The notes under the pieces: generated by a model
The model's database searches: none
What the model was told of the DNA's origin: nothing
Seen by the model: only the letters and a program-made list of their open reading frames with translations
Assembly: GCA_964016885.1 (NCBI GenBank)
Contig: OZ024741.1
Coordinates: 150,226,001 to 150,290,000, forward strand
Direction: 5' to 3'
DNA: 64,000 nucleotides
From: Eledone cirrhosa
Lineage: Eukaryota
Position numbers and translations under genes: made by a program
In this document: positions 5,666-64,000 of the stretch, in pieces
Numbering within the stretch: the stretch's first letter is position 1
Layout of the letters: every line of letters starts with the position of its first letter

Positions 5666-5986
5666 GTCTAAGTCAGTGTTGTAGCATAGGTACAAACTTT
5701 ATTTGCATGTTACAACGTGCTTCGATATCTATTTACAGACTGCACACTACAGCCATAATACTGGAATACAAATCTAACCAAACCGATCTCGTAACAGCAT
5801 CGAGTGCTTCGAACGGCGCACCACCTGATGTTACACACATAACTTACACAGACACACACACACACACACACACACACAAATACACCCCCCCCCCCCACAC
5901 ACACATACATATATATATATATATAAAATACATTTTTTCCAATTCCAACCCACCCGTCCCCTCAATCTATCTTATTCCTCATTGTT

Positions 5987-6135: not shown

Positions 6136-6239
<104 letters not shown>

Positions 6240-6285
6240 GAAGTAACAGGAGGCTGGACTGGTGTAAATCCCTGAAAGGTTTATT

Positions 6286-6343
6286 ATACTATGATCATTT
6301 CAATGTCCGGGCTCAATATGAATCCGGTGATATCATCAGGTAT
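6286..6343 (-). ncRNA. Type I hammerhead ribozyme motif (family F2)
   Basis: Minus strand: AUAC-CUGAUGA-..CCGG..CCGG..-GAAAU(GAUC)AUA-GUAU, with palindromic stem III AUGAUCAU. Confidence 0.75.
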
Positions 6344-7440
6344 TGGAACATAACAAAGGAATATGTAAAAAGCCATGGGTCCGAACAACCATTGATCCGA
6401 GATACCAGAGACAGAGAAGGCGGCTGACCAACTAGCTTCACAGCCAGCCGCCCTCAAAGTGTTGGCAACCGAAACACTTCCAGTGAACATCTGGTAAGGG
6501 GGCGCAGGCCTATCATGTACTACCACCACTCCGTCAAAGAAGAAGGGGAAGAAAGAAAGAAAGGGAGAAAGAAGTGCAGTGTAAGGGTCAAAATACATTC
6601 ATGTTAGAAAATGCTGCGAAAAGAATGCTACCCAAAGAATCTATAGTGGGTGTCTGTATGGTCTAATGTGTGAACCGAAGATTGGAACGCTAAACTTATG
6701 TTGCGAGTTATAGGATTAAATAAATTAAATTAAAAATATTATCTTGCAAAATGGTAAATTGAAAAATAGAGGTAGCGAGATTTATTTATTTAACGAACTT
6801 ATGGAGAGAGTCTTATATGAACAAATTTTTTTTAACTCGATAAGCTATTAGGATGGCATATAGAGTAAAGATTTCGATTGGGAGTCCCAGTCAGCACACC
6901 CAACATCATGAGTCAGCCAGTCTCGAGGGGTATCGTACAGCGAAAGAAATGGAAATTAATTTTTCCGAGTACTCTAGGAACGTAACTAACTTTGGCCCCG
7001 GGATCGCTAGCGGGAACCCCACAATTTCGACAGGCCATCATCTATACCACGAATACTATTAAATCACACATTAGGGGTTTATTTACGTGTCAATAGAGGC
7101 AAGATACAGCTAATAGTTGTGCCCAAACCTGGAGTTTGTAGGTACAGGTATAATTTGGCGGCCAAAACAAGCGGCGCGGTGGGACTGGGGCAGAGCAAGC
7201 CACTCCGAGTAATTTCATTTAGCGAAAGAGGAGAAATTTATTTTTCCGAGCACTCAAGGAAGGCTGAATTTTCCGAGTGCCCAGATTATTGAAGTTGCAT
7301 CTTTCGCAAGGGATGAAAAAGTATCCTTACTGCAGTTTCAAAATCCAAAGAATAACCAGGATTGACCATACGGAATGACCAGTTCTATCCAGTGGTGAAC
7401 CAACAAACCTTAAGAAATATATATATATATATATATATAT

Positions 7441-9546
<2,106 letters not shown>

Positions 9547-9893
9547 TATATATTGAATTGAATTAGTAACTTTTGCCGTATGTTTGAATTCAGAAAATAA
9601 TCTAATAATAATAGGGTGTATAAGGGCATATGCTCCCAGAAGGGAAAAAAATGGGCATTAACATGCGTGGTAATCGAACTGACACTTCTTATTTTCATGA
9701 TGTACAAGCCGACTAAATCAACGTGCCTACCAGATTTTCTACGTTAAATTTAGGAGCTATGATTTAATAGCTATACACACACACACACATATATAATATA
9801 AACATCACGTATGTAGAAGACGACGGTGGGATTCGAAAAGTGAATTGAATTAATAACTTTCGCCGTATTTTCTGTAGCTAAAATACTAATTCA

Positions 9894-24233: not shown

Positions 24234-24254
24234 CATCTATCTATCTATCTCTCT

Positions 24255-27200: not shown

Positions 27201-30122
27201 GTTACCGACAAGCAAAGCCTACAGTAGACGGATTAGCACTTTAGTTAAACAGCACTTGACAGGGGCCATTGTCAACAACAGATGGTGGTACTCTCTCAAG
27301 AGGGCAGTTAGATTAGACTCGTTAGTTTTTACTAAAGAATTAGCGTTAGATAGAAATAGAACCGAGAAGGAACTGGTAGATAAAGTAGAAGAGGCAATTA
27401 GAAGTGGCAACGTAGCCAGCGTGCTAGCAACGAGAACGGCATTGGACCAGTTCTTCGACGCAAAGCACGAGGGCTGCGTTGTCAGAAGCAAAATACGTGC
27501 TCTAGGAAACGAGAGAGCCAAAGCTGTTAGCTGGGCCCGAGTGACGGAGGCAAAAAGTGGCAACAAGTCCACGATTCGGTCTTTGAAGGACAAAAACGGA
27601 CGCGTGATACGTAAGCCGAAGCAGATGTGTGCGGCCTTTCAGCGGCACTTTGCTCAACTGTTCGGGCGGGGTGGCGCGCCGGGAGGGGCTATGGATTTCG
27701 GTCCATACCTCGACGGCCTACCACGACTCTCGGACAGCGAGGCAAAGTTCTGCGAAAAGCTGATTTCAGCCGCTGAGATAGGGGACGCGCTGAGCCAATG
27801 CGGTAAACGCAAATCTCCAGGTCTCGACGGTCTACCCTACGAATTTTAGGTAGCAATGCCAGACTTATTCTCCGGTCTCCTGGAAGCGGTCTACTGCAAC
27901 TGGAAACAGAACGGGAGAATTCCCAGTTCTGTAACCGGGGGCGTGGTCACACTAGTCAGGAAGGACGAGAATAAGGGGGATGACATAGGCAACTCTGGCC
28001 CATAACTCTGCTAAACACAGAGTTACAGATTTTGGCCAAGGTGTTGGCAAAGAGGCTGGCGCTTGTCGTCGAGAACCTGGTGGGAGAAGCGCAGACATGC
28101 GCAATCCCGACCAGGTCCATACACGACAACCTCCACCTCATGCGATATATCATAGAGAGGGTAGGGTGTAAACCCGGCTTCGGTCGAACCCTGATCAACT
28201 TGGATCAGTCTAAGGCTTTCAATAGGGTTGACCATCGTTACCTGGATGCGGTGCTCGAGGCGGCAGGCTTCGGACCCGTGTTCAGGGGGTGGATTGCTGC
28301 AATGCACAACAGCAACATCTGCTCAAGGGTCAAGGTGAACGGCTACCTCTCGGAGCCGTTCCATATTACGCGATCCATTCGACAGGGTTGCCCTCTCTCC
28401 TCCCGTCTGTACGTACTGACTCTCGAGCCACTACTCCGGAAGTTGGAGCTATTGCAGGGTATCCCTCTGGAACCGGGACTGCAGAAAGCGGCGTCAGCCT
28501 ACGCCGACGACGTGACAGTAATGGTGTCGAGCGCCTCGCAAATCGAGGAAGTCGGTACCTTACTGAAGGAATACGAAAGTTTCACAGGAGCGAAGCTGAA
28601 CCGGGACAAGTCCATCGGTTTGAAACTCGGATCGTGGAGAGGCAAACCGATGCCTTTCGATGGCGTCGTCGGACGCTGGACGGAAGGACCGGTAAAGCTG
28701 CTCGGGGTCTGGTTTGGTCCGGACCTCCAGGTGGAGAAGAACTGGAACGAAGTGACGGCCAAGGTGTTTGCACTCACCCAGAAGTGGGCCGAGTGCAAAC
28801 TATCCTTGAAAGGTCGAGCGGAGGTGGCCAACACTTTTATAGCGTCCGCCATCTACTACCGCTTGACCGTCGTGCCTTGTCCAGCCAAAACGCTCTCCAA
28901 AATGGAGCGCGCGCTCTTCCAATTCCTTTGGAAGAGGCGGGCTCCTTTGGTGAGAAGATGCATCTGCTGCCAACACCCTTCTAACGGAGGGCTGAGGATG
29001 CCGTGGTTGACGATGCGCAAACACGCGCTCAAGCTGCGGCATCTCTACGTATTCCTCACCGGACAACCGATGTGGGCCCCGTTCGTGAGGCGAGACTTCC
29101 CACGACCCGTCTCGCTGACCGAGCTGCAGTCCTGGGTCAAGCAAAGACCGAGGAAAATGGGCGACTGGCACATCGAATGTGCTCAGGCGCTCACAGCCCT
29201 CTGGCAGGCGGACCCGGCGATCAGTGGAGACTCCACTTCGTCATTCTATAGAGGGTTGATCCGCAGCAAGTGCGACGACGCGCTCGGTGAAACTCTAGGC
29301 GTAGAGGAAGATGAACTGGCCAGTCTATTCGGTAGGACCTCCCGCCCGGGACCGATGGACAACTTCCAAAAGTCCCTGACCTGGCAGTGCTACCGAGGAG
29401 CTCTACCAGTTCGAGACAAGCTCCCACAGACATGTCCGCCCTGGCAGGGACCCTGCAAAAAAGATCTGTCCAAGGTGCATGCGTAACGAAGAAACCGTCG
29501 CGCACGCATTCATACACTGCCCGGGCGTCACTGACCTGTGGGGCTATGTAGAACGACTATTGTCGCGGGTTGGACCAATCCGGTTGACCACCGAGTCCAT
29601 TGTCATGATCAAACCGCCACCCTCCTTCAAAAACGAAGGAGAGGCGGTTTTCCTTTGTGTGATAGCTATGGCGAAAGAGGTTGTATGGTGGACAAAGTTG
29701 AAAGGGCTGAGTTCAGACACCTTTCTCTCCGGCCAACAACTGATCCTTTTTTTTCAAATACCACTTTGGAAGAAGAATCAGGATGGAGAGAGAAGTGCTG
29801 TACCCCAGCAAGTTTTATGAAAGGTGGGTGAAAGTGGCGAGAATGGCCCGAGTGAATGGGCCTTCTCTTTATATCAACCTGTAGGTTTAGGAAAAGGAGG
29901 AGGAGAGGAAAGGAGTACAAACTCTTCGTACTCCTGGAGATGAGGGTTGCACATTTTTTGGGGGTATGTGTTACCCACATGAACTGTCTCCCCCTATTGG
30001 GGAAAATCGACTCATTTTTAAAATTGCATTTGTGATAACATTTTACACGTTTTTATTGTATGTAAACTTCCCCCTTTGTATTTGTACCCTTCTTTTGTGC
30101 CCCTGTGGCTAATAAAGAAACA
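24255..30122 (+). mobile_element. Full-length, decayed Tx1-clade (L1 group) non-LTR retrotransposon within (TATC)n (Tx1-A)
   Basis: ORF1 zinc knuckle CYQCFSRGHLRASC. ORF2 has APE, RT and a C-terminal Zn region. Ends gtggctaataaagaaaca. (TATC)n at 24166-24250 and 30123-30210. Confidence 0.92.
26440..29884 (+). pseudogene. Tx1-A ORF2 (APE endonuclease + reverse transcriptase), several frameshifts and stops
   Basis: NVRGL, ICESR, VGDWN, SYLDR, KSPGLDGLP, LDQSKAF, RQGCPLS and YADD motifs in ORF pieces 26440-26688, 26661-26933, 27082-27849, 28032-29486 and 29479-29820. Confidence 0.92.
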
Positions 30123-39696: not shown

Positions 39697-40172
39697 ACCC
39701 TAGAAACAGTCGCACATAGTGCTGCTGAAAAGCCGCACACATCTGCTTGGAATCGAGCAGCACTCACCCGTCTTGGTCTGTCAAAGAAGGAATTGTGGCA
39801 TTGTTTCCACACTGCACCTCTGCTATCGAATAGCTTTCATTCCCTTGTTTCTTAGAGCACAAGCCTTAGCTCTGACAATGCAATCTTCATGTTTCACATT
39901 GAAGAAATGGTCCAGTGTCATTCCCGCAGCTAGCACGTCAGTTGCAATGCCCCTCCTAAACGCCTCTTCTGATTTAGCTACTAACTCCCCCTACTTTCTA
40001 TTTTATCCTATCGCTACTTCTTTACCAAATGCTACTGATTCTACTCTAATTGCTCTCTTGAGAGTGCCCCATCACCTGTTGTTTACAATTGCCTTTGTCA
40101 ACTGGTGCTTAACGAATGTCCTAAACCGGTCGCTGTAGGTTTTACGCTTCGGGAACGACGTAGTAAGCTCCC
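39697..40172 (-). mobile_element. Tx1 ORF2 internal fragment directly downstream of a SINE (ATT)n tail
   Basis: Minus strand is homologous to 57123-57590 (..AIVNNRW..KHEDCIVRA..MCAAFQQH). Confidence 0.8.
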
Positions 40173-40390
40173 AATAATAATAATGGTTTCTGATTTAGGA
40201 ACAAGGCCAGCAATTTTGAGGAAGTGAAAAACCGAATAAATCGACTCCAGCACATTTTTGATACTTTATTTCATCGACCCCTTAGGAATGAAAGGCACAA
40301 CTAACCAGAAGCAAATCAGAACGGAAAGTCAAGTAACTAAATACCTCTATGGTATGTTGTCCGATGCTATACTGATTCTAGCAATCAACA
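40173..40390 (-). mobile_element. SINE S1-related copy
   Basis: Minus strand has the core gcctttcattcctaaggggtcgatgaaataaagt and ends ggccttgttcctaaatcagaaacc(att)n. Confidence 0.75.
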
Positions 40391-46293: not shown

Positions 46294-47267
46294 TGTATGT
46301 ATGTATGTATGTATGTATGTATGTATGTATGTATGTATGTATGTATGTATGTATGTATGTATGTATGTATGCATGTATGTATGCATGCAGGCAGGCATAA
46401 ATCTCTGTGCAGGATGAAAAATCGGTGCGAAGAATAAAATAGTCTGTCGTGTTCTATTAAAATCATGTTTGCTTATCTCCTGTTATTGATAAAATCGGCA
46501 GCAGATAATGAGCCGATGCCATATAATATCAAGTAAAAAGACATAATTAAAGATGGTGCTCCAGCATGGCCACAGTCTAATGATTAATAACAGTAATATA
46601 ATAACTGAATAACAGAATAATTGAATAATAGAATATTGTAGCTTGCGCTTTACTTAAATTAGTAGAATTATTTCTGAAAAATTTTCTGAAACTGCAGTTG
46701 ATTCATTCTTTATAATTGATCATTTCATATTTCAATCACGGAAAGTCCTGTTACCTGTTGCAGACAACTTGTAATCCATAGACTAAATACTTTATCTGCT
46801 GCGAAGAATTACAGTCCAATAAAGATTCACAATCCTTCATTTCAGCAGACTGTTTATTTATTAAACTCGGCTTAAGGCGATTACTATTCTTGTACGTACA
46901 CCCATTCTCGGTATGGACCTCCGTCGAATTCGACGATGAGGCTCTAGTCGTTCGATCGGCGGACATATTTTGTATAATGTCTAAGTACACGGAATGGACT
47001 TCCTTCGGCTTCAACGATGACTGTTCAAGTTGCTCGATCAACAGAACAGCCTGCTCCTGAAATTTACGAGTAAGTGGTTGGGTATTCCTCAGACATGTAT
47101 ATCCGACAGGCTTCTGACAGCTTTTGTCTACCCAAATTTACTCACAAGGCTTAGGTTAACATAATACATACTTGCATATAAATGCATGTATACATACATA
47201 TATATACAGGCATGCATACACACATGCATACATACAGACATACATACAGATAAACATATATACATAC

Positions 47268-47670
47268 ATGATGGCTGCATCCCGCTTTCGAGAATTGCTA
47301 TGACTTGATACTTTTCTCACATATTGGTGGCACAAATATGACGTTATAGCCCTGCCATGGATTTACATTCCTTCTGCATATGCTGCAACGAATGGAAAAA
47401 AGCCCTTTTCGGCTACAGGCAGCTATGCTCATGCGACACACGCGTTAGACGTTTAGATAAAGTGATGTCTTTGAAGTTTTTTAAAATGAAGAAATACCTT
47501 GCACTGGACAAAACCGACTCTTTGAACAACGGTGACTGGTATCCCAAAAGAACAGGTCAATATCATTGGTTGCAATCAAGTCGCAGGTTTTACAACAGAA
47601 TTTTCTTTCTCCTAGAATGATATCCTAAACAGGGCCTGGGACTTTCACTCCCAGTGGACTAATCGCGCAC
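47268..47670 (-). mobile_element. RTE-derived element, related family
   Basis: Minus strand has tcattctaggagaaagaaaattctg and ends ttctcgaaagcgggatgcagccatcatgtatg. Confidence 0.55.
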
Positions 47671-47678
47671 TCGGACAC

Positions 47679-47825
47679 TAAATCCCGCCGAGGTTTGTTT
47701 TGCCTTTCATCCTTATGATAAAATAAAGTACCAGTAACACACTGAGGTCGATTTAATCGACTTTTCCCTCCCCCCAAATTATTGATCTTGTGCCTAAATC
47801 AGAAATCATTATTATTATTATTATT
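47679..47825 (+). mobile_element. 5'-truncated SINE S1 variant with (ATT)n tail
   Basis: aaatcccgccgagg..gcctttcatcc..aaagtaccag..cttgtgcctaaatcagaaatc(att)n. Confidence 0.8.
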
Positions 47826-50800
47826 GAATGCTATGGCTGACGGAGGCTCGGCTCTGTAAGGTATTGTAAATTTTGAACGCTATAACAATTGTAAATTGTT
47901 TAAAACTTTAACCAACTTGTAGACAAAAACACCCTCCTCCTCGTGAGAGGGGTCTTTCTGCCCGTTATTTGGCCCTTTGGGGTTAAATAACTGCTTATTG
48001 GGGTTTTGTACCCAATATTTATTTTAAACAAAAAAAACAACAACATGGCTACGAAAAAGAATTTTCATAGGTCACTCCTACTCATTCCGTCTTCTTCTTC
48101 CTCAATCGTCACTACAGCAGAGAGAAGATTGTCTCTCTCCCTCCCTTCTTTAAATGTGTCTCTCTCCCTCCCTTCTCTTTCGCAAGCGACGACAGAAAAG
48201 AAAAGTCTCGTGCAAAGCGTGCAAGATTTCTCCACGACGACGACAACAACGACGAAACAGGTGTGCGGGAAATACGAAAACCCATTTCATTCGTCTGACG
48301 TCAGGAATAATAGCAGTAGCAGCCGTAATAACAACAGCAACAGTGACAATGAAAACAACAGTAGCAGCCGCAACAGCATCACCAGCAGCATAAACAACAA
48401 CAGCATTAGCAGCAGCAACACCAACAACAACCACAGCAACAGCGGCGGAGGCAGTAGTCGTAGTACCTGCAGCAACAACAAAAGTAACAGCAGCTCTGAC
48501 GACAACAACAACAACAGCAGCAAAGAAAAACCAATCTCGTTTGCAGGTATCGCGAAGAACCTGGAAACAATCCTAATAACAAATGAGGAATTAGAGGAAG
48601 CGAAGAAGATGGTGACAAAGACTGGACACCGAGAAATCTGCAAGGCAGCGGAAAATTTTTTCGAAACCCAACAGCACTGTACGGTCACGTACCGTACAGT
48701 AAGTACAAAATCCCGTAGGGTTGAAAGAGCCACAGAGGCTCAAATACAAAAAGCCTTGGGGTCTGTGTGGCAGCGGAAAACGCACATCACCCGAGGCAAA
48801 AAAATGCCACCGTAGACGTACTTTTTGCCACACCCCAGGAGGCAAAGGCTCAATCCGTAGTGACCCTAAGGGGCGAGGAAATGGTGTTGGTGCCCTCCTA
48901 CTGCGGGCAAAAAATTGTGAGGGTCAAACTGACCCACGTCCCCCCGGGATGGCCCCTTCTTGGCTGGCCGCGTCTGTCCTCGTCGGAATCGAGGACAAAA
49001 CAACTGTACTGCAAGTACAGAAAAAAGTAAGAGAAGATTGGGTCGGCACCTCCATTGAGATGTTAATCCAAACCAACCAGGAGTGCATCGAAGCTATCCC
49101 GGATGTGATAGACTTCGATAACGGCACTCAACTTCCCATAAGTGTTGAGGGCAAACGCCCGAAATGCTTTCGCTGTGGATCGAAGACTCACCTCAGGGCC
49201 TTCTGCAACGAGAAGACCCTGAGAAAGGAGAAAACCCCCCTCCTTCCGAAACCGGCTCCACGGCTACCAGTAACAGGACAAGCGGCAACCAGGAACGATA
49301 GGTCCGTGGCACCCATACCCACGCCACGGAAATCAAAAACAGCAGCAGCAGTGGAAATATTAACAACAACAACAACAGCAATACCAAATGCAGCTGCAAC
49401 AGAGACTCCAGTGCAAACATCACCAACAACAACAAGTGAAAGAGTGGAGCTGGTACCCCTCCCCGACTTCACAGAATCAGACATGGAGTGTGAGGTGGGA
49501 GAGGAATGGCAAAAGGTCGTAAGAAGGCACAAACGCAGAAGCAGCGCATCGTCGCCTTTGAAAAGGGAGGAAAGAAATGAGAAAAGGGTAAAGTCTACTG
49601 CAAAGAGACTCACAGCAGCAACACCACCAACACCATCACCACCCACACTAACACCACCATCACCACCGGCGAAAACCCCACCGCCAACAACACCTTCAAC
49701 ACCACCACCACAAGCACCAACATCGCAAACACAACAATAAAACACACACACCCAGCAGCAACGACAAGAAAATAGCAGAACGACACCCCACCCCCAGAAA
49801 AACAAATGCACGGCAATAAATACACACAACAAGAAACTAACGACTACATAATACCAGCACCAATCAAAACGCCAACTAACATAAGACTGCTAAAAATAGC
49901 ACAGAAACAATACACAAACATTAAAACGAAATTCCCCAACGCAGTTGGTGATTTCAGGGACCTAGGAGGAACTATCAATCGAAGAGTATATTCGGACATA
50001 CTCATAGAAAAGCCGACGACCAGCCGAAGGGACGATTCAACGGTCCCTTCACCAGACGATCAAGTGAAAAGGGATGTAAAAACCATCCCTCCTCTACGAA
50101 AAGTACGGTAAGTGGTCTTTCCCATCTTTTCCACTCTATTTTAAACATGACCTCACTCAGAATAGGCAGCATAAATGCGCGTGGATTGGGGTCGTCATGG
50201 AAGCAGGGTCACCTGCTCAACGACCTCGGGTCACTAAACATAGATGTAGTGGCCATCTGCGAGACCAGAATCTCCGAAGCACGGGCCTTCGCACCGATCT
50301 TCGGCGGCTACGATGTGTACGCATCTCCCAGCCGTCCTGGATCGGGGGGAGGAGTTGCTGTGCTTTTTCGGAGAGGTTTGGATCTCGCCATACGGGCAAT
50401 CTTCCTGGACCCAGAGGGTAAGCTGGTGGTGCTGGACGTGACCAGCGGAGACGGGCAAGCTTTCAGGCTAGTGGCCGTCTATGTCCCGACAGGAGCAGGG
50501 CGGCCTGATTTCTTCCGGCCTGATTTCTTCTGGAGACCTTTCTTGGAACGTCCCGCTCTTTAGTGTTAGTGGGCGACTGGAACGGGATCTTAGATGCACG
50601 CTGGGACTGTGTGGGATTAGCGGATAGGGGAGGAGGGTGCAAGAGCCTCACCAACCTGCTCAGGCGTTTTGAACTGTCTGACAGGTACCGATTGGATTTC
50701 CCGAATGTGCCAATATGCACTTGGACAAATCGCATAGGGTCATCCAGATCATATCTAGATAGAGTATTTTGTAGGGAAATAGATAGGTCTAGCTTAGGCT

Positions 50801-53756
50801 GTCCACAATTCAACATAGTCAGCTACACGGACCACAAATTCGTGATCTGTGTGCTTGACTTAGATAGGCTTCATAGACGAGGACCCGGCTACTGGAAGCT
50901 AAACGCGTCCTTACCAGCGCGCAAGGCCTACAGAGACCGGATTAGCGAACTAGTTAAGCGGGCGTTGACGGGGGCCATCGTCAACAACAAGTGGTGGTTT
51001 GCTCTGAAAAGAGCGATTAGAATAGAATCGATTAGGTTTAGTAAGGCTTTAGCAATAGAGAAAAATAGAGCAGAGGGAGAACTAGTTAGAAAATTAGACG
51101 AGGCGCTTAGCAAAGGCATTGCGACCGACGTGCTTGCGGCGAAATTGGCCCTTGACCAATTCTTCAATGCAAAGCACGAAGGCTGCGTTGTCAGAGCAAG
51201 GGTGCGTGCTCTCAGACACGAGGGGACGAAAGCCGTTCAATGGGCCCGAGTGGCGGAGGCGCGTCGTGGCAACAAAGCCACGATCCGGTCTTTGGTGGAC
51301 CACGGCGGGCGCATACTACTCGATCCCGGGCAAATGTGTGAAGCTTTTCAGCGACACTTCGCTCAGCTGTTCGGGGACAGCGGTGGGCCGGGTAGAGGGA
51401 TGGACTTTAGTGTCTACCTCGACGGACTGCCGCGGCTCTCGGCCACTGAGGCGAAGTGTTGCGAAAAGCCGATAACAGCCGCTGAAGTAAGGGAGGCAAT
51501 GACTGGCTGCACAAGGGGTAAATCGCCTGGTTTGGATGGTCTGCCCTATGAACTTTACGTACAGATGCCAGACTTGTTCGGAGGCCTCTTGGCGGACGTC
51601 TACTGCAACTGGCAACAGAACGGGAGAATTCCCAGTTCTGTGAGCCGAGGAGCGGTGGCACTGCTGAGAAAGGATCCGAACAAGGGGATAACATAGATAA
51701 TTTCCGGCCCATAACTCTGCTAAACACAGAGTTCAAGATTTTGGCCAAGGTGCTAGCAAAGAGGTTGGCGCTTGTCGTTGGTGGTCTGGTGGGACAGGCG
51801 CAGACATGCGCCATTCCCGACAGATCCATCCACGACAACCTCCACCTCATGCGATACATCATAGAGAGGGTAGCTAAGGAACCTGGCACGGGTGGGTCCT
51901 TGATCAATTTAGATCAGTCGAAAGCTTTCGATAGGGTCGACCATCGTTACCTAGCGGCAGTCCTGAGGGCGGCTGGCTTTGGGCCCGTCTTCAGAGGCTG
52001 GATCGCTGCCATGCACAGCGACATCTGTGTCCCTCTTGTACGTATTGACTCTCGAGCCATTACTGCACAAACTGGAGACGTTGAGGGGAGTCCCGCGCGA
52101 ACTAGGATGCGGAAGATCCGTGTCAGCATATGCGGACGATGTCACCGTAGTGGTGTCGAACGCCAAACAGATCGAGGCGATCGGCACTACACTAAGAGAA
52201 TACGAAGCGGTGACAGGAGCAATGATCAACCAGGAAAAGTCAGTGGGCCTGCAGCTCGGCACCTGGAGAGGCAGGTCCATGCCGTCCAACAGCGTCGTCG
52301 GGTGCTGGACGGACGGACCGGTTAAATTGCTAGGGGTCTGGTTCGGTCCGGACCTCCAGACGGACAAAAACTGGGACGAGGTGACGAGCAGGGTGGCTTC
52401 TCTCACCCAGAAATGGGCGGAGAGGAAGCTATCCCTGAAAGGTCGAGCGGAGGTGGCTAACGCGTACATCGCGTCTGTCATCTGCTACCGCCTAACCGTC
52501 GTACCTTGTCCTAAGCCTCACCTGACTGCGCTGGAGCGTTTGCTCTTTCGCTTTTTGTGGAAGGGACGTGCTCCGATGGTCAGGCGGTCCATCTGTTGTC
52601 AACACCCGCTACGTGGAGGGCTGGGCATGCCGTGGCTGATGATGCGCAGGCACGCGCTCAGGCTACGACATCTCCACCTCTTCCTCGACGGTGATCAGGT
52701 GTGGTCGCCGTTTGCTAGACGCGTTTTTCCCCAGCTCGTTTCCTTGACGGAGCTGCAGTCCTGGGTCAAGCGAAGACCGAGAGGGAGCGCCTGGAGACTG
52801 GAATGTCTTCAGGCGCTCACAGCCCTCGACCAATCGGGCAATGTGATCGGTGGAAACTCCACCTCGGCGTTCTATAGAGGATTAGTGGAGGGGAAGAGCG
52901 ACGACGTACTTGGGGAAACTCTAGGCGTCGACGAAAATCAACTAGCCAATCTCTTCGGAAGAACTTTCGGGCCAGGGCCTATGGACAACTTCCAGAAATC
53001 TCTGGCCTGGCAGTGCTACCGAGGAGCCTTGCCAGTTCGGGATAAACTCTACAGGCATGGAGGTGCCGTCAGCCGGGCATGTCCGAGATGCGCGCAGGGC
53101 GACGAAACCGTCCTGCACGCACTCGTCCAGTGTCCGAAAATTGCTGACTTGTGGGTTTATGTCGAACACCTGCTGTCGCGTTTAGGACGGATCCAGCTAT
53201 CATCTGAGTCCATCGTGAGGATTGCCCCGCCCTCCTCCTTTAGCCGGGAAGGGCAGGCAGTTTTTATCTGTCTGGTGGCCATGGCGAAAGAGATAGTATG
53301 GTGGACACGTTTGAAAGGGCTGAAGACGAGCACTTACCTCTTCGGTGATGCTCTGATTGACTTTTTCAAATTTCATTTGAAAAGGAAAATCAGAGTAGAG
53401 AGGGAAGTGCTCTCTTCCCAGCATTTTGTTGAAAGATGGGTGAGAGAAGCAAGAATGGCCCGAGTGAATGGGCCGACTCTGAGTATATATCTGTAAACTA
53501 AAGGTGGAAAACTGGGAGAGGACACTTGCCTTGGTGGTCAGGGTCATTGTGGCTTTTTACTGGGCTTTCTCCACAAATGTCCCTCCGAAGTCTCCCCCCT
53601 ATTGGGGAATTTTTCATTGTTATTTTCATTGTTATTTTTGTTACATCCTCTGTTTTTGTTTTTTTACACGCAGAAATGCCCATTTGTACCGTCCTGCATT
53701 GTCCTGCACTGTCCTTAATGTCTACTTTATGTAAACCCTTGTGGTTAATAAAGAAA

Positions 53757-53758
<2 letters not shown>
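47826..53758 (+). mobile_element. Full-length Tx1-clade LINE (Tx1-B)
   Basis: ORF1 about 48045-50111 (CFRCGSKTHLRAFC), ORF2 50147-53496, 3' end cccttgtggttaataaagaaatc, then (ATT)n 53759-53792. Confidence 0.93.
50147..53496 (+). pseudogene. Tx1-B ORF2 (APE + RT + CCHC), frameshifted, RQGCPLS segment deleted near 52028
   Basis: ORF pieces 50147-50563, 50563-51696, 51741-52325 and 51979-53496, with YADD and CPRCAQGDETVLHALVQC. Confidence 0.92.
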
Positions 53759-53792
<34 letters not shown>

Positions 53793-53793
<1 letters not shown>

Positions 53794-54185
53794 GGCGAAT
53801 TGGCAGTATCGGTAGAGGGTTGGACACTCTGCTTTGCAGCAAAGAGTTACGGCCATTTATGGTCTGAGTTCAAATCCCGCAGAGGTTAACTTTGCCTTTC
53901 ATCCTTACGGGGTCGATAAAATAAAGTACCAGTAATGTACTGGGTAATTGCTGGCCTTGTGCCTAAAGTAGAAACAATTATTATTATTATTACGGTGGAT
54001 TGGCTGTATCGGTAGAGGGCCGGACGCCATGCTTTGCAACAAAGAGTTACGGCCCTTTATGGTCTGAGTTCAAATCCCGGCGAGGTTAACTTTGCCTTTC
54101 ATCCTTACGGGGTCGATAAAATGAAGTACCAGTAATGTACTGGCTAATTGTTGGCCTTGTGCCTAAAGTAGAAACAATTATTATT
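53793..54185 (+). mobile_element. Two tandem full-length SINE S1 copies
   Basis: 53793-53992 and 53993-54185, each with A/B boxes, core and ccttgtgcctaaagtagaaaca(att)n. Confidence 0.92.
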
Positions 54186-57100
54186 GGTCTGTTCGGACGT
54201 CTTTTTGCTCGCTCCCACTAGGTCGCTTTATTTGGCTGTTATAATTATTTGTTGTTTAATTTTTCTTGTTGTGTAAGGGACTTTTCCCTGTGAAGGGTAA
54301 AGTATAATATTTGGGCCTTTTGGTCAAAATATTTGAACAATTTTTGAACATTTTACTTTAAAAAAAAAAACATGGCTGAGCCACGCCGCCCCAGCAATAT
54401 GTCTGCTGTCGTGTGACAATAGCGTAAAAGTTGAGAGGAGGGTTACAGAAATTGATACAACAAACACCACCACAAACAACGTGAACAAAGAAAACAACAC
54501 TGAGAACACTATTTTAAAAAAAATTACTACACCAACTACAACAATAACAGCGACAACCAAAATACAGACAATAGAAAAAAATGACAACAAATGCAACAAC
54601 GATATTAACACCACTAACAAGAAAATAAACAACGACAACACCAACAGTAACAATACAAATTGCACCGAAAACAACAACAACGGTGGCACCAAAAACACAA
54701 CCAACTACAACAGTGATAACACCAACACCAACAACACCGTTTGTAGCAGTAGCAACAGCAACAGCACCAACAACAAGACCAATAGCAGCAGTAACGGCAG
54801 CAATAATGGTGCCGCTGAAAAAGGGGCCATTTCTTTCGCAGGTGTGGCCCGAAATATAGAGACAGTCGCAAGAGCCATGGTGACAAGAAATGACAATAGA
54901 GTTTCCCTGAAACCTCCACCCGATTTCTTCAAAGACCAACAGCTGCGCCCGGTGACTTACCGCACCGTAAGCAAAATGTCACATCGGGTGGAGCGAGCCA
55001 CGGAGGCTCAAATCCAAAAGGCCTTGGGGTGCGTCTGGGCGCGCAAAACCCACATCACCCGAGGCAAAAAGTACGCCACAGTAGACGTACTTTTCGACAC
55101 CCCTCAAGAGGCGTAGTCTCACTCTTTGGAAACCCTAAAGAGTGAGGAGATAGTCTTGGTGCCCTCCTACTGAGGGCAGAAAATTGTGAGAGTCAAAGTG
55201 ACCCAGGTCCCGCCCGACGTGCCCATACCTTGGCTGACCGCGTCTGTACTTGCTGGAATCGAGGAGAAGACCACCATACTGTCAATACAGAGAATGGGAA
55301 GAGAGAACTGGTCAGGAATAGGCATGCAAATGCTAATAAAAACTGATCAGGAGTGCATCGAGGCCATCCCAGATATCACAGACCTTGAGGAAGGACTCCA
55401 ACTCCCTACAAGCGTGGAAGGAAGGCGCCCAAAGTGCTATCTCTGTGGGCAGAAGGGTCACCCCAGGGCCTTCTGCCCGCAGAAGACAGCAAAGAAGAGG
55501 GCCCCCTCCTTCCGACGCCTCATCCGCTGCAATCAAGAGCAGGGCAGGCAACAGAGGCAGAAGACCCTTCCATGGTGAGTAGGAGAGCAACGTCCGTGGC
55601 ACCCATACCAAGGCCATGGACAACTAAAACAGTTGGCAGTGGCGGCAACACCACCAGTCGCAGTAGCTACACCGGCGGCAAAATCGCCGGAGCGGGCTCC
55701 CCTACCAACACCAACAGAAGTGGAGCTCATGCCCCTCCCAGACGCCACGGAATCCGACATGGAGTATGAGGTGGGAAGGAAGTGGCAAACGGTCTGCCAC
55801 AAAAAAGAAAAAAAGAATAAAACCCTTAGCTTCACCCTCCAAAGGCCAAGGCAAACAAAGAGGGGTAAAGGTTGCAAAGAGACTTGCAGCAACACCACCA
55901 TCATCATCATCACCACCACAAGAAACACCACCAACAAAAACCACACCACCACCAGCATCACCAAAATCACCAACATCGCAAACACAACAAAGCACACACA
56001 CCCAACAGCAGCAACAAGAAAACAGTAACAAAATCACCCCTCCCCCCCAAAAAGTACACAGCCATAAACATGGCAAATAAAGAACTCTTACAACATATAA
56101 AGCAGCACACAGACATCACAGACAAAAATTACTACACCCCACCAACACCAAGAACTCTCCCGAAAAATATAAAGATTATTGAAATCAAAATAGAACATTA
56201 TTAACTTTTAAAAGAAAATTTCCCCAACGCAGTTGGAGACTTCAGAGGGTCGGTTACCAAGAGGATATACACCGACATCATCTTGGAAATACCCATGACC
56301 AGCCAAAGGGACGGTTCGACTGTCCCTTTCCCACACGATCAGGGCAGGTGATCCTTTCTCACTTACTCCATTCCTCACCCAACATGGCCTTACTTAGAAT
56401 AGGCAGTATAAATGTACGTGGCCTGGGGTCATCTTGGAAGCAGGGCCACCTGCTTAACGATCTCAGGTCACTAAATATAGATGTGGTTGCCATCAGCGAG
56501 ACCAGAATTTCCGAAGCACGAGCCTTCGCACCGATCTTCGGCGGCTACGATGTATACGCATCTCGCAGTCGTCTAGGCTCGGGGAAAGGAGTTGCTGTGC
56601 TTTTTTGGAGAGGCTTTGATCTCGCCATACGGGCCATCTTCCTGGACCCAGAAGGTAAGTCGGTGGCGCTGAACGTGACCGGCAGCGAAGGCAATGCTTT
56701 CAGGCTAGTAGCCGTCTACCCCCCAACAGGGGCAGGACGGCCAGATTTCTTCAGACGTCTGGAGACCTTTCTTGGAACGTCCCGCTCCTTAGTGTTAGTG
56801 GGCGACTGGAACGGTATCTTAGATGCATGCTGGGATTATGTGGGGCTAGTAGACAGGACAGGAGGGTGTAAAAGCCTCAACAACCTGCTCAGACGTTTTG
56901 AACTGTCTGACAGGTATAGACTGGATTATCCGAATGTGCCAATGTGGACATGGGCAAAACGCATCGGGTCATCCAGATCGTATTTAGATAGGGTATTCTG
57001 TAGGGAAACAGATAAGGATAGTGTAGGTTGTCCACAATTTAAAGTAATCGACTACACGGACCACGAATTTCTGATCTGTGAAGTTGACTTAGATAGACTC

Positions 57101-60007
57101 CATAGGCAAGGGCTCGGTTACTGGAGCTGAACGCGTCGTTCCCGGCGCGCAAAGCTTACAGGGACTGGATTAGCGAATTAGTTAAGCGTGCGTTGACGGG
57201 TGCGATCGTCAACAATGGGTGGTGGGTTACCCTGAAAAGGACTATTAGAGTAGAATCGATAAGGTTTAGCAAAGGAGTAGTGATAGTGGAAAATAGAGTA
57301 GAGGGAGAGTAAGTTAGAAAGCTAGAAGAGGCGTTTAGGACAGGCATCGCAACCGACGTGCTTGCGGCGAGATTGGCACTCGACCAATTCTTCAACGCAA
57401 AGCATGAAAGATGCGTTGTCAGAGGTAGAGCGCGTGCTCTAAGACACGAGGGGACGAAAGCCGTTCAATGGGCCCGGGTGGTGGAGGCGCGACGGGGCAA
57501 CAAGTCGACAATTTGGTCTCTGCCTGATCAAAGCGGGCGCATGCTGCTCGAACCCGAGCAGATGTGTGCGGCTTTTCAACAGCACTTCGGGAGCGGCGGC
57601 GGGCCGGATTGGAGTATGGACTTCGATGCATACTTCGACGGACTGCCGCGACTCTTGACGACCGCAGCGCAGTGCTGCGAAAAGCCGATAACAGCAGGTG
57701 AAATACGGGAAGCGATGTCTGACTGCACGAGGGGTAAATCGCCAGGTTTGGATGGTCTGCCCTACGAGATTTATGCGTATATGCCAGACTTGTTCGGCGA
57801 CTTCTTGGCAGATGTCTACTGCAACTGGCAGCAGAACGGGAGCATTCCCAGTTTTGTGAGCCGGGAAGCGGTGGTGCTGCTGAGAAAAGACCTGAAAAAG
57901 GGGGACGTTATAAACAACTTCATGCCCATAACTTTGCTAAACCCAGAGTTTAAGATTTTGGCCAAGGTGTTAGCGAAGAGATTGGCGCTTGTAGTCGGTG
58001 ATCTGGTGGGAGAGGCGCAGACATGTGCTATTCCGGACAGATCCATCCGCGACAACCTCAATCTCATGCGATACATCATAGAGAGGGTGGTTAAGGAACC
58101 TGGTACGGGTGGGGCCCTGATTAACTTGGATCAATCTAAAGAATTCGATAGGGTCGACCATCGGTACCTGGCTGCGGTCCTCGAGGCGGCTGGATTCGGG
58201 CCCGTTTTTAGGGGCTGGATCGCTGCGATGCACAGCGACATCTGCTCGATTGTGAGGGTGAATGGTCACCTGTCGCAGCCTTTCAGCATCATGCGCTCGG
58301 TCCGGCAGGGTTTCCCCCTCTCGTCTCTCTTGTACGTACTGGCCATCGAGCCATTACCACACACATTGAAGACGAAGAAGGGGTGGGGGACCCACGCGAA
58401 CTGGGATGCGGGAGTTCCGTGTCATCTTACGCCGACGACGTCACCGTGGTGGTGTCGAGCACCAAACACGTCCAGATGCTCGGCACCGCTCTCAAGGAAT
58501 ACGAAGCGGTGACAGGAGCAAAGACAAACCAGACAAAGTCGGTGGGTTTGCAGCTCGGCATCTGGAGAGGCAAGTCGATGCCGTCCGACAGCATCGTGGG
58601 GCGCTGGACGGAAGGACCGGTTAAATTGTTCGGGGTCTGGTTCGGTCTGCACCTCTAGATGGAGAAAAACTGGAGAGAGGTGAAGAGCAGGGTGGCCTCT
58701 CTCACCCAGAAATGGGCCGATAGGAGGCTGTCTCTGAAAGGTCGAGCGGAGGTGGCGAATGCGTACATAGCGTCCGTCATCTGTTACCGCCTGACCGTCG
58801 TACCTTGCCCCCGCCCAACTCTGACCAAAATGGAGCGCCTTCTCTTCCGGTTTTTGTGGAAGGGACGTACTCCCATGGTCAGACGATCCGTTTGCTGTCA
58901 ACACCCGTTGCGTGGAGGACTAGGCATGCCGTGGCTGATGATGCGCAAACATGCGCTGAGGCTGCGACATCTCTGGTGCTTCCTTGATAGTGAAAAGGTG
59001 TGGTCGGCGTTTGCCAGACGCGCTTTTCCCCAGCTCGTCTCCTTGACTGAGCTGCAGTCCTGGATCAGGAAAAGACCGAGGGATAGCGCTTGGAAGCTGG
59101 AATGTCTCCAAGCGCTCACCGCCTTCTACCAGCTGGGTACTAGTATCGGTGGAATATCCACCTCGACGTTCTATAGAGGGCTAGTGGAGAGAAAGAGCGA
59201 CGACGTCCCCGGGGATACCCTCGGCGTCGTAGACGATCAGCTATTCTCTCTCTTCAAGAGAACTTTCAGAAATCCCTGGCCTGGCAATGCTACCGGGGAC
59301 CGTTGCCGGTTCGGGATAAGCTCTACAGGCACGAAGGTGCTATCAGCCGAGCCTGTCCGAGATGCACGGAGGGCGACAAAACCGTCCTGCACGCACTCGT
59401 TCAGTGCCCGAGGATTGCTGACTTGTGGGGCTATGTCGAACAGCTGCTGTCGCGTGTAGGACGGATCCGGTTATCGACTGAGTCCATTGTGCAGATAGCC
59501 CCGCCATCCTCCTTTATAGAGGAGGAAGGGCAGGCAGTTTTCATCTGCCTGGTGGCCATGGCGAAAGAGATTGTGTAGTGGACAAGATTGAAAGGGTTGA
59601 AGACAGACACTTTCCTCTCCGGCCAATCCCTGATTCAAGTTTCACTTGAAGAGGAAGATCAGGGTGGAGAGGCAAGTGCTGTCTTCTAGTAAGTTTGTTC
59701 AAAGGTGGGTGAAAGTGGTGAGTCTGGTCCGAGTGAACAGGCCCGCTCTGAGTATACGCCTGTAAATTGAGGAGTGGGAAAAGTGGTTAGGGTGGCCGTG
59801 GGCGTTTGTGTGGTTTTCACCACGAGTAACCCTCGGAGGTTTCCCCCTTCTTGGGGAATTTTTGTTGCTTGAATTTTTTTGGATTTCTAGCCCGATTTTG
59901 TTATAACCTGTTTACACGACCAAAACCCACTTTGTATCGTCCTGTACTGTTCTGTGCCGTCTCTAATGTTTTTCTTCGTGTCAGCCCTTGTGGCCAATAA
60001 AGAAACC
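54186..60007 (+). mobile_element. Full-length decayed Tx1-clade LINE (Tx1-C)
   Basis: ORF1 about 54372-56351 (CYLCGQKGHPRAFC), ORF2 56384-59765 with stops and frameshifts, 3' end cccttgtggccaataaagaaacc(att)n. Confidence 0.93.
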
Positions 60008-60017
60008 ATTATTATTT

Positions 60018-60220
60018 TGGCAGTATCGGTAGAGGGTCGGACGCCATGCTTTGACGCAAAGAGTTACAGCCCTTTCCATTATGAGTTCAAATCCCGCCGA
60101 GGGTAACTTTGTCTTTCATCCTTACGGGGTCGATAAAATAAAGTACCAGTAATACACTGGATAATTGCTGGCCTTGTGCCAAAAGTAGAAACAATTATTA
60201 TTATTATTATTATTATTATT
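60018..60220 (+). mobile_element. SINE S1 copy with (ATT)n tail
   Basis: tggcagtatcgg..gagttcaaatcc..ggccttgtgccaaaagtagaaaca(att)9. Confidence 0.92.
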
Positions 60221-63200
60221 GGCGACCTACGTAGGAACTCGTATTATCGTGAGCTCCGCAAAGGTTTGTTGTTTTCAGTTGTTTCAAATTGCCAGTTATG
60301 GACAATTTTTGTTGTTAAGTGTTTATAAGTTCACATATATTGCTATCTGTAAAAGACACAAAAATATTGGGGCCTTGAGTCCAAACTTAAACCTTTAATT
60401 ATCAAACAAAATATTTCTTTGAAAAGAAAAACATGGACCACAAATGTTCTGTTTATAACAGACCAACACCCGCTCCCCCACCATCACCAACACCAACACC
60501 ATTGTAAGCCTTGCCACGGATGCCAACACTGAAAATATAATTACTAGCAGTCTGAATTATTTAGACTTGCCGCATAAAGACATGGATTTCTCGCCATTAC
60601 CAATAACTGCAGGTGTTAAAGCTGCCACCCCCACCACCACAATGTCAAAAAGAACAACCAACACCACTGATACCACCACCACCACAGCGACAACAGACCC
60701 CCCCCCCAAAAAAAAAATTATTATCTCGTGACATCAAAATGGATTCACCCAGAATCCACTCTTCCACGCCGAACACCACTGACACCACCACCAACTCCAC
60801 CACAACTGAAACTAAAAATAACAATAACAACAACAGCAACAACAACAACAATGAGAATAACAACATCAATACCACCGCAAAGAAAAATGTGTCGTTTGTC
60901 AAAGCAGCTAAGAAAAGCGAAACAATCGAGGTAAGCCAGGATGAATTAAATGAAGCCAAGAGAATGGTAAAAATAGATGGGTACAGGGTCAGCCTCACCC
61001 CCACCTAATAAAATGGAGCATCGGCGCCTATGCACCGCGTCTTATCGGACGATAAACACAAAATCACGCCGAGTGGAACGGGCATCCGAGTCCCAAATAC
61101 AAAAAGCTTTGGGACATGTGTGGGAGAAAAAACCCACATCAGACGTGAGCAGAAATATGGATACGTGGACGTGTTCTTTGGAACACCACAGGAAGCCAGA
61201 AAGCACTCCATGGCCCCATTAAGAAGCGACGACTTTACACTCGTCTCAAGCTATTGTGGTCAGAGACTCGTGAAGATCAGGGTGACCAACGTTCCACCGG
61301 CCATCGAAATTCCCTGGCTAATGGCTGCCGTCCTCACCGGCATCGAGGCCAAGACGAAAATAATTGAGGTAACAAAAGAAAAGCAGGAGAATTGGTCCTG
61401 ATCCAAGCGGACCAAAAAAACATTGAGGAAATCCCAGAGGTGATAGACCTCACTGACGGCAGCCACCTGACCGTAATCGTTGAGGGTAGAAGGCCTAGGT
61501 GTGTCGTTTGTGGTGAAGGAACCCACCTAAAGGCTTTCTGCCCTCAGGCTAAAAAGTTGAGGCCACCTCTCCTACCCAATCCAGTGACTCAACCATCAAA
61601 ACCAGCAGCAGCAGAAATGGCAGCAAGAACAGAAGCAACTATAGCAGCAACAACCCCAGCAACAGTAGCAAAACCAACACGACCACCACCCACCGAGCCA
61701 GAAATAGCACCAGTGCCTCCACCATCCACCACGCCACAACCAAAACCAACGCCTGTGGAGGATTTTCCACTCCCCGAACTATCGCAACTGGAGACAGATT
61801 GTGACGACGAGGAGTGGGAAACTGTATCAGGAAAAAAGAAAAAAAGAAAAAAAGAAAAAGAACCCCAAAAAGAAAGAAATCCACTTCCTTCCTCCCGAAA
61901 AAACAAAATACAGGGGGAAATAAATAAACTAACAAACAAAAAAGTTAGGACAACTATGCCACCATCCACACCAGCATCACCAACCCCAATACCACCATCA
62001 CAAACACCACAAAAGTCACCAAAAGGCGCAACAGAAACAAACCCACAACAAACGCAAACAAAACAAAACAACCAAAACGATACACACAGCACAGCATTAA
62101 ATTTGTACAACAACCAGTTATTACACTACATCCAACACAACACCAGCATCACAGAAAAAGACTACACAACACCTCAAAAATTCACACCACCTCCACACAT
62201 ACAAATCACTCGCATCACACAGAAAACGTACACCACACTAAAACAAAAATTCCCCAAGGACATCGGAGACTTCCGACAAGCACTTTCCAGGAGGATATAT
62301 ATAAGGACATCCTTTCGGAGGAGGCCACAAGCAGTGAGAAGGATGGAGAAACCATCCTTCCTCTACGAGAAGTAAGGTAAGTGGTTTTTCCCATCTTTTC
62401 CACTCCTTTTCAACATGACGTCACTCAGAATAGGCAACATAAATGCGCGTGGCTTGGCGTCGTCATGGAAGCAGGGCCACCTACTCAACGACCTCAGGTC
62501 ACTAAACATAGATGTGGTGGCCATCAGCGAGACCAGATTCTCCGAGGCACGGGGCTTCGCACCGATCTTCGGCGGCTACGATGTGTACGCATCTCCCAGT
62601 CGTCCTGGATCGGGGGGAGGAGTTGCTGTGCTTTTTCGGAGAGATTTGGATCTCGCCATACGGGCCATCTTCCTGGACCCAGAAGGTAAGTTGGTGGTGC
62701 TGGACGTGACCAGCGGAGACGGGCAAGATTTCAGGCTAGTGGCCGTCTATGCCCCGAGAGGTGCAGGGCGGCCTGATTTCTTCCGGCGTCTGGAGACCTT
62801 TCTTGGAACGTCCCACTCTTTAGTGTTAGTGGGCCACTTGAACGGGATCTTAGATGCACGCTGGGATTGTGAGGGATTAGCGGATAGGGGAGGAGGGTGC
62901 AAGAGCCTCACCAACCTGCTCAGGCGTTTTGAACTGTCAGACAGGTACCGATTGGATTTCCCGAATGTGCCAATGTGGACTTGGACAAAGCGCATAGGGT
63001 CATCCAGATCATATCTAGATAGAGTATTTTGTAGGGAAATAGATAGGACTAGCATAGGCTGTCCACAATTCAAGATAGTCAGCTACACGGACCACAAATT
63101 CGTGATCTGTGTGCTTGACTTAGATAGGCTTCATAGACGAGGACCCGGCTACTGGAAGCTAAACGCGTCCTTACCAGCGCGCAAGGCCTACAGAGACCGG

Positions 63201-64000
63201 ATTAGCGAACTAGTTAAGCGGGCGTTGACGGGGGCCATCGTCAACAACAAGTGGTGGTTTGCTCTGAAAAGAGCGATTAGAATAGAATCGATTAGATTTA
63301 GTAAGGCTTTAGCAATAGAGAAAAATAGAGCAGAGGGAGAACTAGTTAGAAAATTAGACGAGGCGCTTAGCAAAGGCATTGCGACCGACGTGCTTGCGGC
63401 GAAATTGGCCCTTGACCAATTCTTCAATGCAAAGCACGAAGGCTGCGTTGTCAGAGCAAGGGTGCGTGCTCTCAGACACGAGGGGACGAAAGCCGTTCAA
63501 TGGGCCCGAGTGGCGGAGGCGCGTCGTGGCAACAAAGCCACGATCCGGTCTTTTGTGAACCACGACGGGCGCATCCTACTCGATCCCGGGAAAATGTGTG
63601 AAGCTTTTCAGCGACACTTCGCTCAGCTGTTCGGAGGCAGCGGTGGGCCGGGTAGAGGGATGGACTTTAGTGTCTACCTCGACGGACTGCCGCAGCTCTC
63701 GGCCACTGAGGCGAAGTGTTGCGAAAAGCCAATAACAACCGCTGAAGTACGGGAGGCAATGACTGGCTGCACAAGGGGTAAATCGCCTGGTTTGGATGGT
63801 TTGCCCTATGAACGTTACGTACAGATGCTAGACTTGTTCGGAGGCCTCTTGGCGGACGTCTACTGCAACTGGCAACAGAACGGGAGAATTCCCAGTTCTG
63901 TGAGCCGAGGAGCTGTGGCGCTGCTGAGAAAGGATCCGAACAAGAGGGATAACATACATAATTTTAGGCCCATAACTCTGCTAAACACAGAGTTCAAGAT
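60221..64000 (+). mobile_element. Tx1-clade LINE running off the window (Tx1-D)
   Basis: Frameshifted ORF1 about 60433-62380 (CVVCGEGTHLKAFC), ORF2 from ATG 62415. Confidence 0.92.
62415..64000 (+). CDS. Tx1-D ORF2 N-terminal part (APE + start of RT), apparently open to the window end
   Basis: The frame from ATG 62415 is in phase with the terminal NFRPITLLNTEFK. The APE motif GDWN reads GHLN here, so the endonuclease may be dead. Confidence 0.7.
   Translation, partial: MTSLRIGNINARGLASSWKQGHLLNDLRSLNIDVVAISETRFSEARGFAPIFGGYDVYASPSRPGSGGGVAVLFRRDLDLAIRAIFLDPEGKLVVLDVTSGDGQDFRLVAVYAPRGAGRPDFFRRLETFLGTSHSLVLVGHLNGILDARWDCEGLADRGGGCKSLTNLLRRFELSDRYRLDFPNVPMWTWTKRIGSSRSYLDRVFCREIDRTSIGCPQFKIVSYTDHKFVICVLDLDRLHRRGPGYWKLNASLPARKAYRDRISELVKRALTGAIVNNKWWFALKRAIRIESIRFSKALAIEKNRAEGELVRKLDEALSKGIATDVLAAKLALDQFFNAKHEGCVVRARVRALRHEGTKAVQWARVAEARRGNKATIRSFVNHDGRILLDPGKMCEAFQRHFAQLFGGSGGPGRGMDFSVYLDGLPQLSATEAKCCEKPITTAEVREAMTGCTRGKSPGLDGLPYERYVQMLDLFGGLLADVYCNWQQNGRIPSSVSRGAVALLRKDPNKRDNIHNFRPITLLNTEFK

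Follow-up and report, generated by a model that had tools for sequence, protein, structure and literature searches.

A head-to-tail chain of Tx1-like LINEs and SINEs in Eledone cirrhosa, probably built by sequential insertion into (ATT)n microsatellites

Results

Architecture of the chain

The window analysed here, a stretch of 64,000 nucleotides (nt) from Eledone cirrhosa (assembly GCA_964016885.1, contig OZ024741.1, forward-strand positions 150,226,001 to 150,290,000), closes with a series of long and short interspersed nuclear elements (LINEs and SINEs) that follow one another head to tail. The original prediction, made from the letters alone, had described more than 16 kb of such same-strand elements, and direct reading of positions 47000–64000 together with a self-comparison confirmed that the chain is real. 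Reading of the next 20 kb revealed that it runs past the window end: its last LINE stops at ~66080 and is followed by (ATT)16+GTT, a fifth SINE (66135–66313), (ATT)3+GTT and unique DNA, this SINE bearing its own (ATT)3GTT duplication. The complete chain, SINE-Tx1A-SINE-SINE-Tx1B-SINE-Tx1C-SINE, extends from 47680 to ~66320 (~18.6 kb) and comprises eight elements, three LINEs and five SINEs, all on the plus strand and linked by (ATT)3–16. All six junctions proposed within the window were recovered at their predicted positions as pure (ATT)n.

47680–47807, plus strand: 5′-truncated SINE of a second subfamily, beginning within the B box
47808–47825, plus strand: (ATT)6 junction
47826–53758, plus strand: Tx1A, full-length Tx1-like LINE
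53759–53792, plus strand: (ATT)11 + A junction
53793–53976, plus strand: SINE, main subfamily; motifs resembling A and B boxes recognized by eye
53977–53992, plus strand: (ATT)5 + A junction
53993–54176, plus strand: SINE, 92% like that at 53793–53976
54177–54185, plus strand: (ATT)3 junction
54186–60007, plus strand: Tx1B, full-length but broken LINE of an older family
60008–60016, plus strand: (ATT)3 junction
60017–60193, plus strand: SINE lacking a few 5′ bases
60194–60220, plus strand: (ATT)9 junction
60221–64000, continuing to ~66080 past the window, plus strand: Tx1C, LINE with its own 5′ untranslated region (UTR) and open reading frame 1 (ORF1)
39718–40306, minus strand: second join, made of a SINE 3′ part (40306–40185), (ATT)4 (40184–40173) and an internal ORF2 fragment (40171–39718)

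The recurrence of a SINE-(ATT)n-Tx1 join on the minus strand near 40172, which had also been proposed, held only in part: the join itself exists at 40173–40184, but its LINE portion is a 454-bp internal piece of ORF2 (72% identical to Tx1B) without a 5′ end. A search of the 3.0 Gb assembly returned the same junction types at dozens of further loci; the chain locus is not special, such joins being common genome-wide.

LINE families of the chain

Tx1A carries ORF1 from ~48045 and ORF2 at ~50147–53496 with APE, reverse transcriptase (RT) and zf-RVT domains; the window copy contains frameshifts and misses ~78 bp at 52027/52029. It represents the youngest family, with 5′ ends that are 97–98% alike. 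The 5′ end of Tx1B is 84–89% identical to other copies, and its ORF2, starting at 56384, shares 82% DNA identity with that of Tx1A, while ORF2 of Tx1C begins at 62415. All three window copies are broken. A fully intact relative of Tx1A was found at locus L134 (1730–7284, minus strand), encoding an ORF1 of 699 and an ORF2 of 1139 amino acids (aa); at locus L128, ORF2 is likewise intact.

The L134 ORF2 comprises an N-terminal APE domain (Exo_endo_phos), RVT_1 and a C-terminal zf-RVT, and its best solved relatives are human L1 ORF2 (E 1e-52) and, far behind, R2 (E 7e-22). With APE, RT, a C-terminal zinc finger and L1 ORF2 as nearest relative, it has the hallmarks of an L1 group non-long-terminal-repeat retrotransposon. 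In ORF1, a CX2CX4HX4C motif (CCHC knuckle) is visible, and the intact relative contains two RRM-like domains. A feature search, which yields leads rather than assignments, returned zf-CCHC and ZCCHC3-type RNA-binding clusters at 0.91–0.94; for the L134 ORF1 no Pfam match was obtained, and a homology search with the ORF1 core came back empty at E 0.001. An RRM/zf-CCHC ORF1 has been tied to the Tx1 clade (PMC5203782). On these protein features, membership of LINEs A–C in the Tx1 clade appears well supported, although not proven.

The three LINEs had been predicted to differ in 5′ UTR and ORF1, which is correct (the 5′ UTRs give no mutual blastn match), with the refinement that Tx1A and Tx1C differ in these parts only and share ORF2 and 3′ UTR at 96–97% identity. 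The shared ORF2, the 92% identity of the adjacent SINE pair and the lack of a locus-level bridge in short reads (see below) could point to tandem duplication or unequal exchange, or to misassembly, as the origin of the chain. However, C-type 5′ parts were joined to A-type ORF2 in 8/8 fetched copies retaining ORF2 and thus constitute a dispersed family, the LINE 5′ UTRs are unrelated, SINE pairs are 88–92% alike, as random copies are, and the same joins recur on many contigs. In agreement with the original prediction, simple tandem duplication was rejected, and we regard this group of explanations as very improbable.

Exchange of parts is not confined to the C family. Among ten B-type 5′ ends, two (L190, L195) combine a C-like ORF1 with a B ORF2, a third (L186) starts likewise, and a fourth (L194) is linked to an A-type ORF2. 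The modules 5′ UTR, ORF1 and ORF2 have been reassorted among the families in these four copies and in the window (50063/62333), with the exchange located immediately ahead of ORF2. Such module swapping between LINE families might be favored by head-to-tail arrays. A 58-nt Tx1A 5′ stub was observed at L139 (558–615); it follows (ATT)9 and precedes a full copy by 385 bp.

Family-specific microsatellite flanks

The 5′ ends of A, B and C, stripped of ATT, were used as genome queries and gave 1742–2125 candidates each, of which the best 40 were scored and 30 fetched; after removal of three self matches, 87 copies were analysed for their 5′ flanks. In addition, 20 A, 10 B and 10 C copies were fetched in full, and the 3′ end was in range for 33/40. 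As background we used 200000 random positions for the (ATT)3 frequency and 40 evenly spaced 10-kb stretches (400 kb) from five large contigs. Among these best-scoring, full-length copies, (ATT)3 was present within 30 nt of the 5′ end in 82/87, compared with 0.17% of random positions, and the 5′ flank ended exactly in ATT in 78/87 (background 2.3%). At the opposite end, all 33 full-length copies with the 3′ end in range finished in ATT tails, and at least three exact ATT units followed 25 of 29 non-self 3′ ends. In this sample, the flanks are not due to chance.

A sister family in the same window provided an internal control for target specificity:

24253–30122, plus strand: Tx1D, sister family with (ATCT)n on both sides

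As a sister family, Tx1D shows ~70% DNA identity over ORF2, and the A and D endonucleases are ~61% identical at the aa level. Upstream of 24 other family D copies, (ATCT)3 occurred within 50 nt in 21, (CT)n in three and (ATT)3 in none; the 3′ end was in range for seven of ten fetched copies, and all seven begin an ATCT tail. Two of these seven ends (L282, L284) are directly followed by another D copy. Family D copies were also seen behind other ATCT-tailed Tx1 ends (L258, L262, L279). Further Tx1-like 3′ ends carry (AGT)n-like or (TA)n tails (L163 ~5606, L193 3872, L002 minus strand 2884) and possibly represent more families with other targets.

Microsatellite-specific Tx1 families have been defined as those in which a single type of repeat flanks >20% of the copies (PMC4494074), and both the (ATT)n share of A/B/C and the (ATCT)n share of D lie above this value, which bears out the prediction of microsatellite-specific elements. 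The same data argue against undirected insertion followed by passive build-up in repeat-rich, low-recombination DNA. Matches do cluster on the largest contigs, whose content of Tx1-like DNA is ~4%, but the junctions fall at the tract with single-base precision, and in the same window a different repeat is used by family D, with no overlap. Passive accumulation is contradicted by the family-specific flanks and was rejected; we consider it barely credible.

Neighbours of the (ATT)n tracts

Upstream of the tract, the 87 copies were preceded by a SINE tail (25), a Tx1 tail (18, or 19 with L085, assigned by eye), an antisense R4/Dong-like LINE (15) or other sequence (28). Downstream of the 29 non-self 3′ ends we found a sense Tx1 in nine cases, a sense SINE in four, an antisense Dong-like LINE in six, an antisense Tx1 in one and other sequence in nine; another LINE or SINE directly abuts 20/29. 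Copies thus sit in (ATT)n, end in (ATT)n tails and abut other elements, which supports the original inference that each insertion regenerates the target and builds arrays. The 400 kb background contained 58 distinct tracts of at least three units, including 12 SINE tails (11 by script, one by eye), one Tx1 tail and two CR1-like tails. Tx1 tails are enriched upstream of LINEs (19/87 vs 1/58, p 0.0004), as would be expected if long tracts are better targets. All six background tracts of at least five units touch a LINE, as judged by eye.

Antisense LINEs share these tracts and carry (AAT)n tails on their own strand. They fall into two families, X and Y, which we take to belong to the R4/Dong clade; RT, CCHC and restriction-like nuclease PD..D motifs are visible, with a weak match to R2 (E 0.001–0.003). 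Family Y ends are followed by AAT-rich tails in 20/20 (by eye), and its 3′ ends are 97–99% alike, indicating recent activity. The two Dong-like families were found tail to tail with Tx1 or SINE tails (L158, minus strand 1070–5750; L124, 6479–8100). Another type of 3′ end terminating in (ATT)n (L154, minus strand ~6140–6500; L169, 3872–4218) is presumably CR1/L2-like, judging from its translation by eye.

If ~0.45 of tails gain a same-strand neighbour, rough arithmetic that applies the Tx1 figure to all links gives ~0.4% for seven consecutive links. As Tx1-like DNA makes up ~4% of these contigs, an eight-element chain is the expected upper tail and no anomaly.

Several other repeats were noted. 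ATT tails pass into runs of (AGT)n or (CTT)n at five loci (L228, L231, L247, L133, L254), which suggests that new microsatellites are born from tails via substitution and slippage. An inverted-end element with (ATT)3 beside (TA)n recurs in the window (17111, 23942) and elsewhere (two pairs at L121; L149, L151, L171) and is likely a small DNA transposon residing in TA repeats. The window also contains a tandem repeat at 8212–9547 (period 482, 2.8 copies, 99% matches).

The SINE and its relation to the LINEs

The 184-bp SINE is abundant, with 3318 candidates genome-wide and 59 blast hits in the 400 kb background. Short length, many copies, A and B boxes recognized by eye, target duplications and a simple-repeat tail correspond to the tRNA-derived type, while neither ARAGORN nor Rfam reported a tRNA or RNA family in the window. 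Among the 29 background SINEs whose 3′ end is exact, ATTAT follows in 25, and 15 are flanked by target duplications of 10–20 nt (swapped flanks: mean 1.65, maximum 5). Truncated LINE ends in ordinary DNA (L233, L071, L008) show similarly short duplications, which likewise start with ATTAT. The last 40 nt of the SINE resemble the three Tx1 3′ ends (p 0.001–0.1 in 12 comparisons, eight of them below 0.02), compared with p 0.12–0.94 in 12 comparisons with CR1-like and Dong-like ends. This likeness, which covers the final ~25 nt, makes the SINE a likely partner of these LINEs that probably borrows their enzymes. At L002 (C17 37808320–37809160), five SINEs are spaced by (ATT)n+AAGGG, an array due either to sequential insertion or to local amplification.

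It had further been suggested that an upstream SINE promoter drives read-through into the LINE, or that SINE and LINE are mobile as one unit. For read-through it can be said that the main-subfamily SINE has no internal T4 run, and that a SINE tail lies directly upstream of 13/29 Tx1B copies as opposed to 4/29 Tx1A copies (p 0.02). The latter difference would, however, be explained if the B family, being older, had been open to SINE insertion for a longer time, and the youngest family, Tx1A, mostly has no upstream SINE. SINE tails as a whole are not enriched upstream (25/87 vs 12/58, p 0.33). T4–T5 runs stop RNA polymerase III; they occur 46, 17 and 52 nt into the 5′ UTRs of Tx1A, Tx1B and Tx1C, respectively, that of Tx1B being T5, with 22–24 per element. 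A co-mobilized unit would call for one shared upstream SINE of common structure and high identity, which was not seen: the upstream SINEs belong to two subfamilies and start at positions 1–8, 71, 80–83, 93–99, 113 or 138, and seven full-length SINEs preceding Tx1B copies are 90% alike, as dissimilar as 13 background SINEs (89%).

Two loci allowed the order of insertion to be determined. At L073, the duplication around the SINE consists of ATT repeats and the first 7 nt of Tx1B, so that the SINE must have entered after the LINE. At L133, Tx1A lies between two copies of ATT(CTT)n(ATT)n, a part of the SINE tail peculiar to this locus, and therefore entered after the SINE. The SINE that duplicated the start of Tx1B also speaks against read-through. 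Altogether, the suggestion of read-through or joint mobility is largely refuted, and we give it next to no weight.

Discussion

Probable sequential insertion into self-made targets

The neighbours within the chain differ in family, age and truncation, insertions happened in both orders, the flanking repeat is family-specific and equals the tail, and polarity is fixed. The chain consists of eight separate elements, and we consider it highly probable that it grew step by step, as Tx1-like LINEs targeting (ATT)n, and a SINE likely borrowing their enzymes, inserted independently of each other. Target-primed reverse transcription is the standard model of LINE insertion. Following this model, the predicted APE endonuclease would nick the AAT strand, the (AUU)n end of the RNA would pair with the nicked end and prime synthesis, and every insertion would split an (ATT)n tract and append a new tail. 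Targets would therefore multiply at occupied sites and, given the fixed polarity, same-strand head-to-tail chains would arise, while R4/Dong-like LINEs with their (AAT)n tails would enter the same tracts in antisense orientation.

A number of observations weigh against this account. The sample of best-scoring copies is skewed towards full-length, similar copies, and L041 is a full-length copy without upstream ATT. No convincing duplication with non-repeat bases was found in 31/33 full-length copies with both ends (L133 is clear, L126 unclear, and the rest show repeat-only or short chance matches), so that part of the 5′ (ATT)n could stem from element RNA or later slippage instead of a long pre-existing tract. 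The SINE shows a looser preference than the full-length LINEs, with an (ATT)3 context in 8/29 background copies and ATTAT being sufficient. Its likeness to the LINE 3′ ends is short (~25 nt), and folding revealed no shared 3′ hairpin, the three LINE ends giving a weak one (z −1.2 to −1.8) and the two SINE ends none. Neither an empty nor a polymorphic site was seen, and no listed short-read record bridged a junction with 31 letters per side (four runs on 53400–54500 and four on 59850–60400), a comparison that was swamped by other copies and gives no verdict.

In an alternative, the 5′ (ATT)n would mostly be carried by the element: the transcript would start in the upstream tract, the cDNA (complementary DNA) end would anneal to any short ATT, and only such events would yield full-length copies. 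On this view, the actual target would be no stricter than the ATTAT of the SINE, and insertion together with slippage would have generated the long tracts, although the chains would still be sequential. The exact phase of the 5′ junctions (78/87), the presence of SINEs and short truncated LINE pieces at ATTAT sites devoid of a microsatellite, and the LINE contact of the longer background tracts (6/6, by eye) fit this view. On the other hand, only 1–2 ATT units precede the 5′ end at L200, L063 and L086, meaning that no fixed leader is added, the duplicated stretch at L133 has its locus-specific CTT run on both sides, and the upstream flanks are enriched in Tx1 tails, which form long tracts. We judge a carried leader to be rather unlikely.

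Tentatively, the data may be extended to parallel, self-feeding microsatellite guilds, in which Tx1, SINE, Dong-like and CR1-like elements would make most long (ATT)n and insert into each other's tails, while sister Tx1 families would have switched both tail and target to (ATCT)n. If this were true, the target would be partly set by pairing of the RNA tail with nicked DNA, and a tail swap, not the endonuclease alone, would retarget an element. Families A and D form a natural pair of close LINEs, one with an intact copy, that use different microsatellites and matching tails, which makes the respective shares of endonuclease and tail pairing in target choice testable. In genomes of the cephalopod type, the elements may help to account for hotspots of LINEs and SINEs as well as for long tracts of ATT, and ATT microsatellite markers would often be element junctions.

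Comparison with known systems

The underlying principle, microsatellite targeting and tandems by double insertion, is already known: microsatellite-targeting Tx1, TAA-targeting Dong, Tx1-mobilized SINE tandems and double-insertion tandems have all been described (literature including PMC4640811 and PMC3747384). Cephalopod elements have likewise been reported, including the tRNA-derived octopus SINEs OK, OR1 and OR2 (Ohshima and Okada 1994, cited in PMC4758252 and PMC3531059) and, in a 2026 octopus annotation, active L1-Tx1 and Dong-R4 families and hotspots, with no discussion of targets in the parts examined (PMC13282606). Our literature search, which covered sources other than Repbase reports and subscription papers (where octopus Tx1 targets may be described), turned up neither Tx1 elements that target (ATT)n or (ATCT)n nor mixed chains of this kind in cephalopods.

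The closest counterparts are Kibi and Koshi of teleost fish and crocodilian Tx1 families, which insert into (TC)n, (TTC)n, (TTCC)n or (TTTC)n (PMC4494074, PMC3812793). Like the present elements, these are APE-type Tx1-clade LINEs residing in microsatellites, whereas the Eledone families, from an invertebrate, use (ATT)n and (ATCT)n, neither of which is listed for Tx1 in the passages cited; the likeness is one of target type. With these two targets, the elements do not match Kibi or Koshi proper, which target (TC)n or (TTC)n; 3/24 family D copies follow (CT)n. The Eledone elements thus extend the known microsatellite-targeting Tx1 families by two targets that we did not find in print.

For the SINE, crocodilian SINEU offers a parallel, sharing its target preference with Tx1 families and forming tandems by sequential insertion around a target duplication (PMC4494074). 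In the SINEU/Tx1-Mar system, the target is a Mariner element, the head derives from U1/U2 snRNA and the SINEU-1 3′ end has no LINE match, while the SINE described here uses the elements' own tail as target and has a tRNA-like-looking head and a 3′ end that resembles the LINE over ~25 nt. Dong elements of the R4 clade, including snail DongBg, are specific for TAA microsatellites (PMC3812793), the same repeat as here, and Dong-like LINEs with a restriction-like nuclease occupy these very tracts. They differ from the Tx1 elements in nuclease class and strand, with (AAT)n tails as opposed to the (ATT)n of Tx1 and SINE. Finally, tandem transposons formed by double insertion, such as R1 arrays, P and jockey, result from insertions that preserve and add a target (PMC5932611). 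These are mostly dimers of one family, whereas here a single target, which is also the elements' own tail, serves LINEs of several families, SINEs of more than one subfamily and an antisense R4-like LINE.

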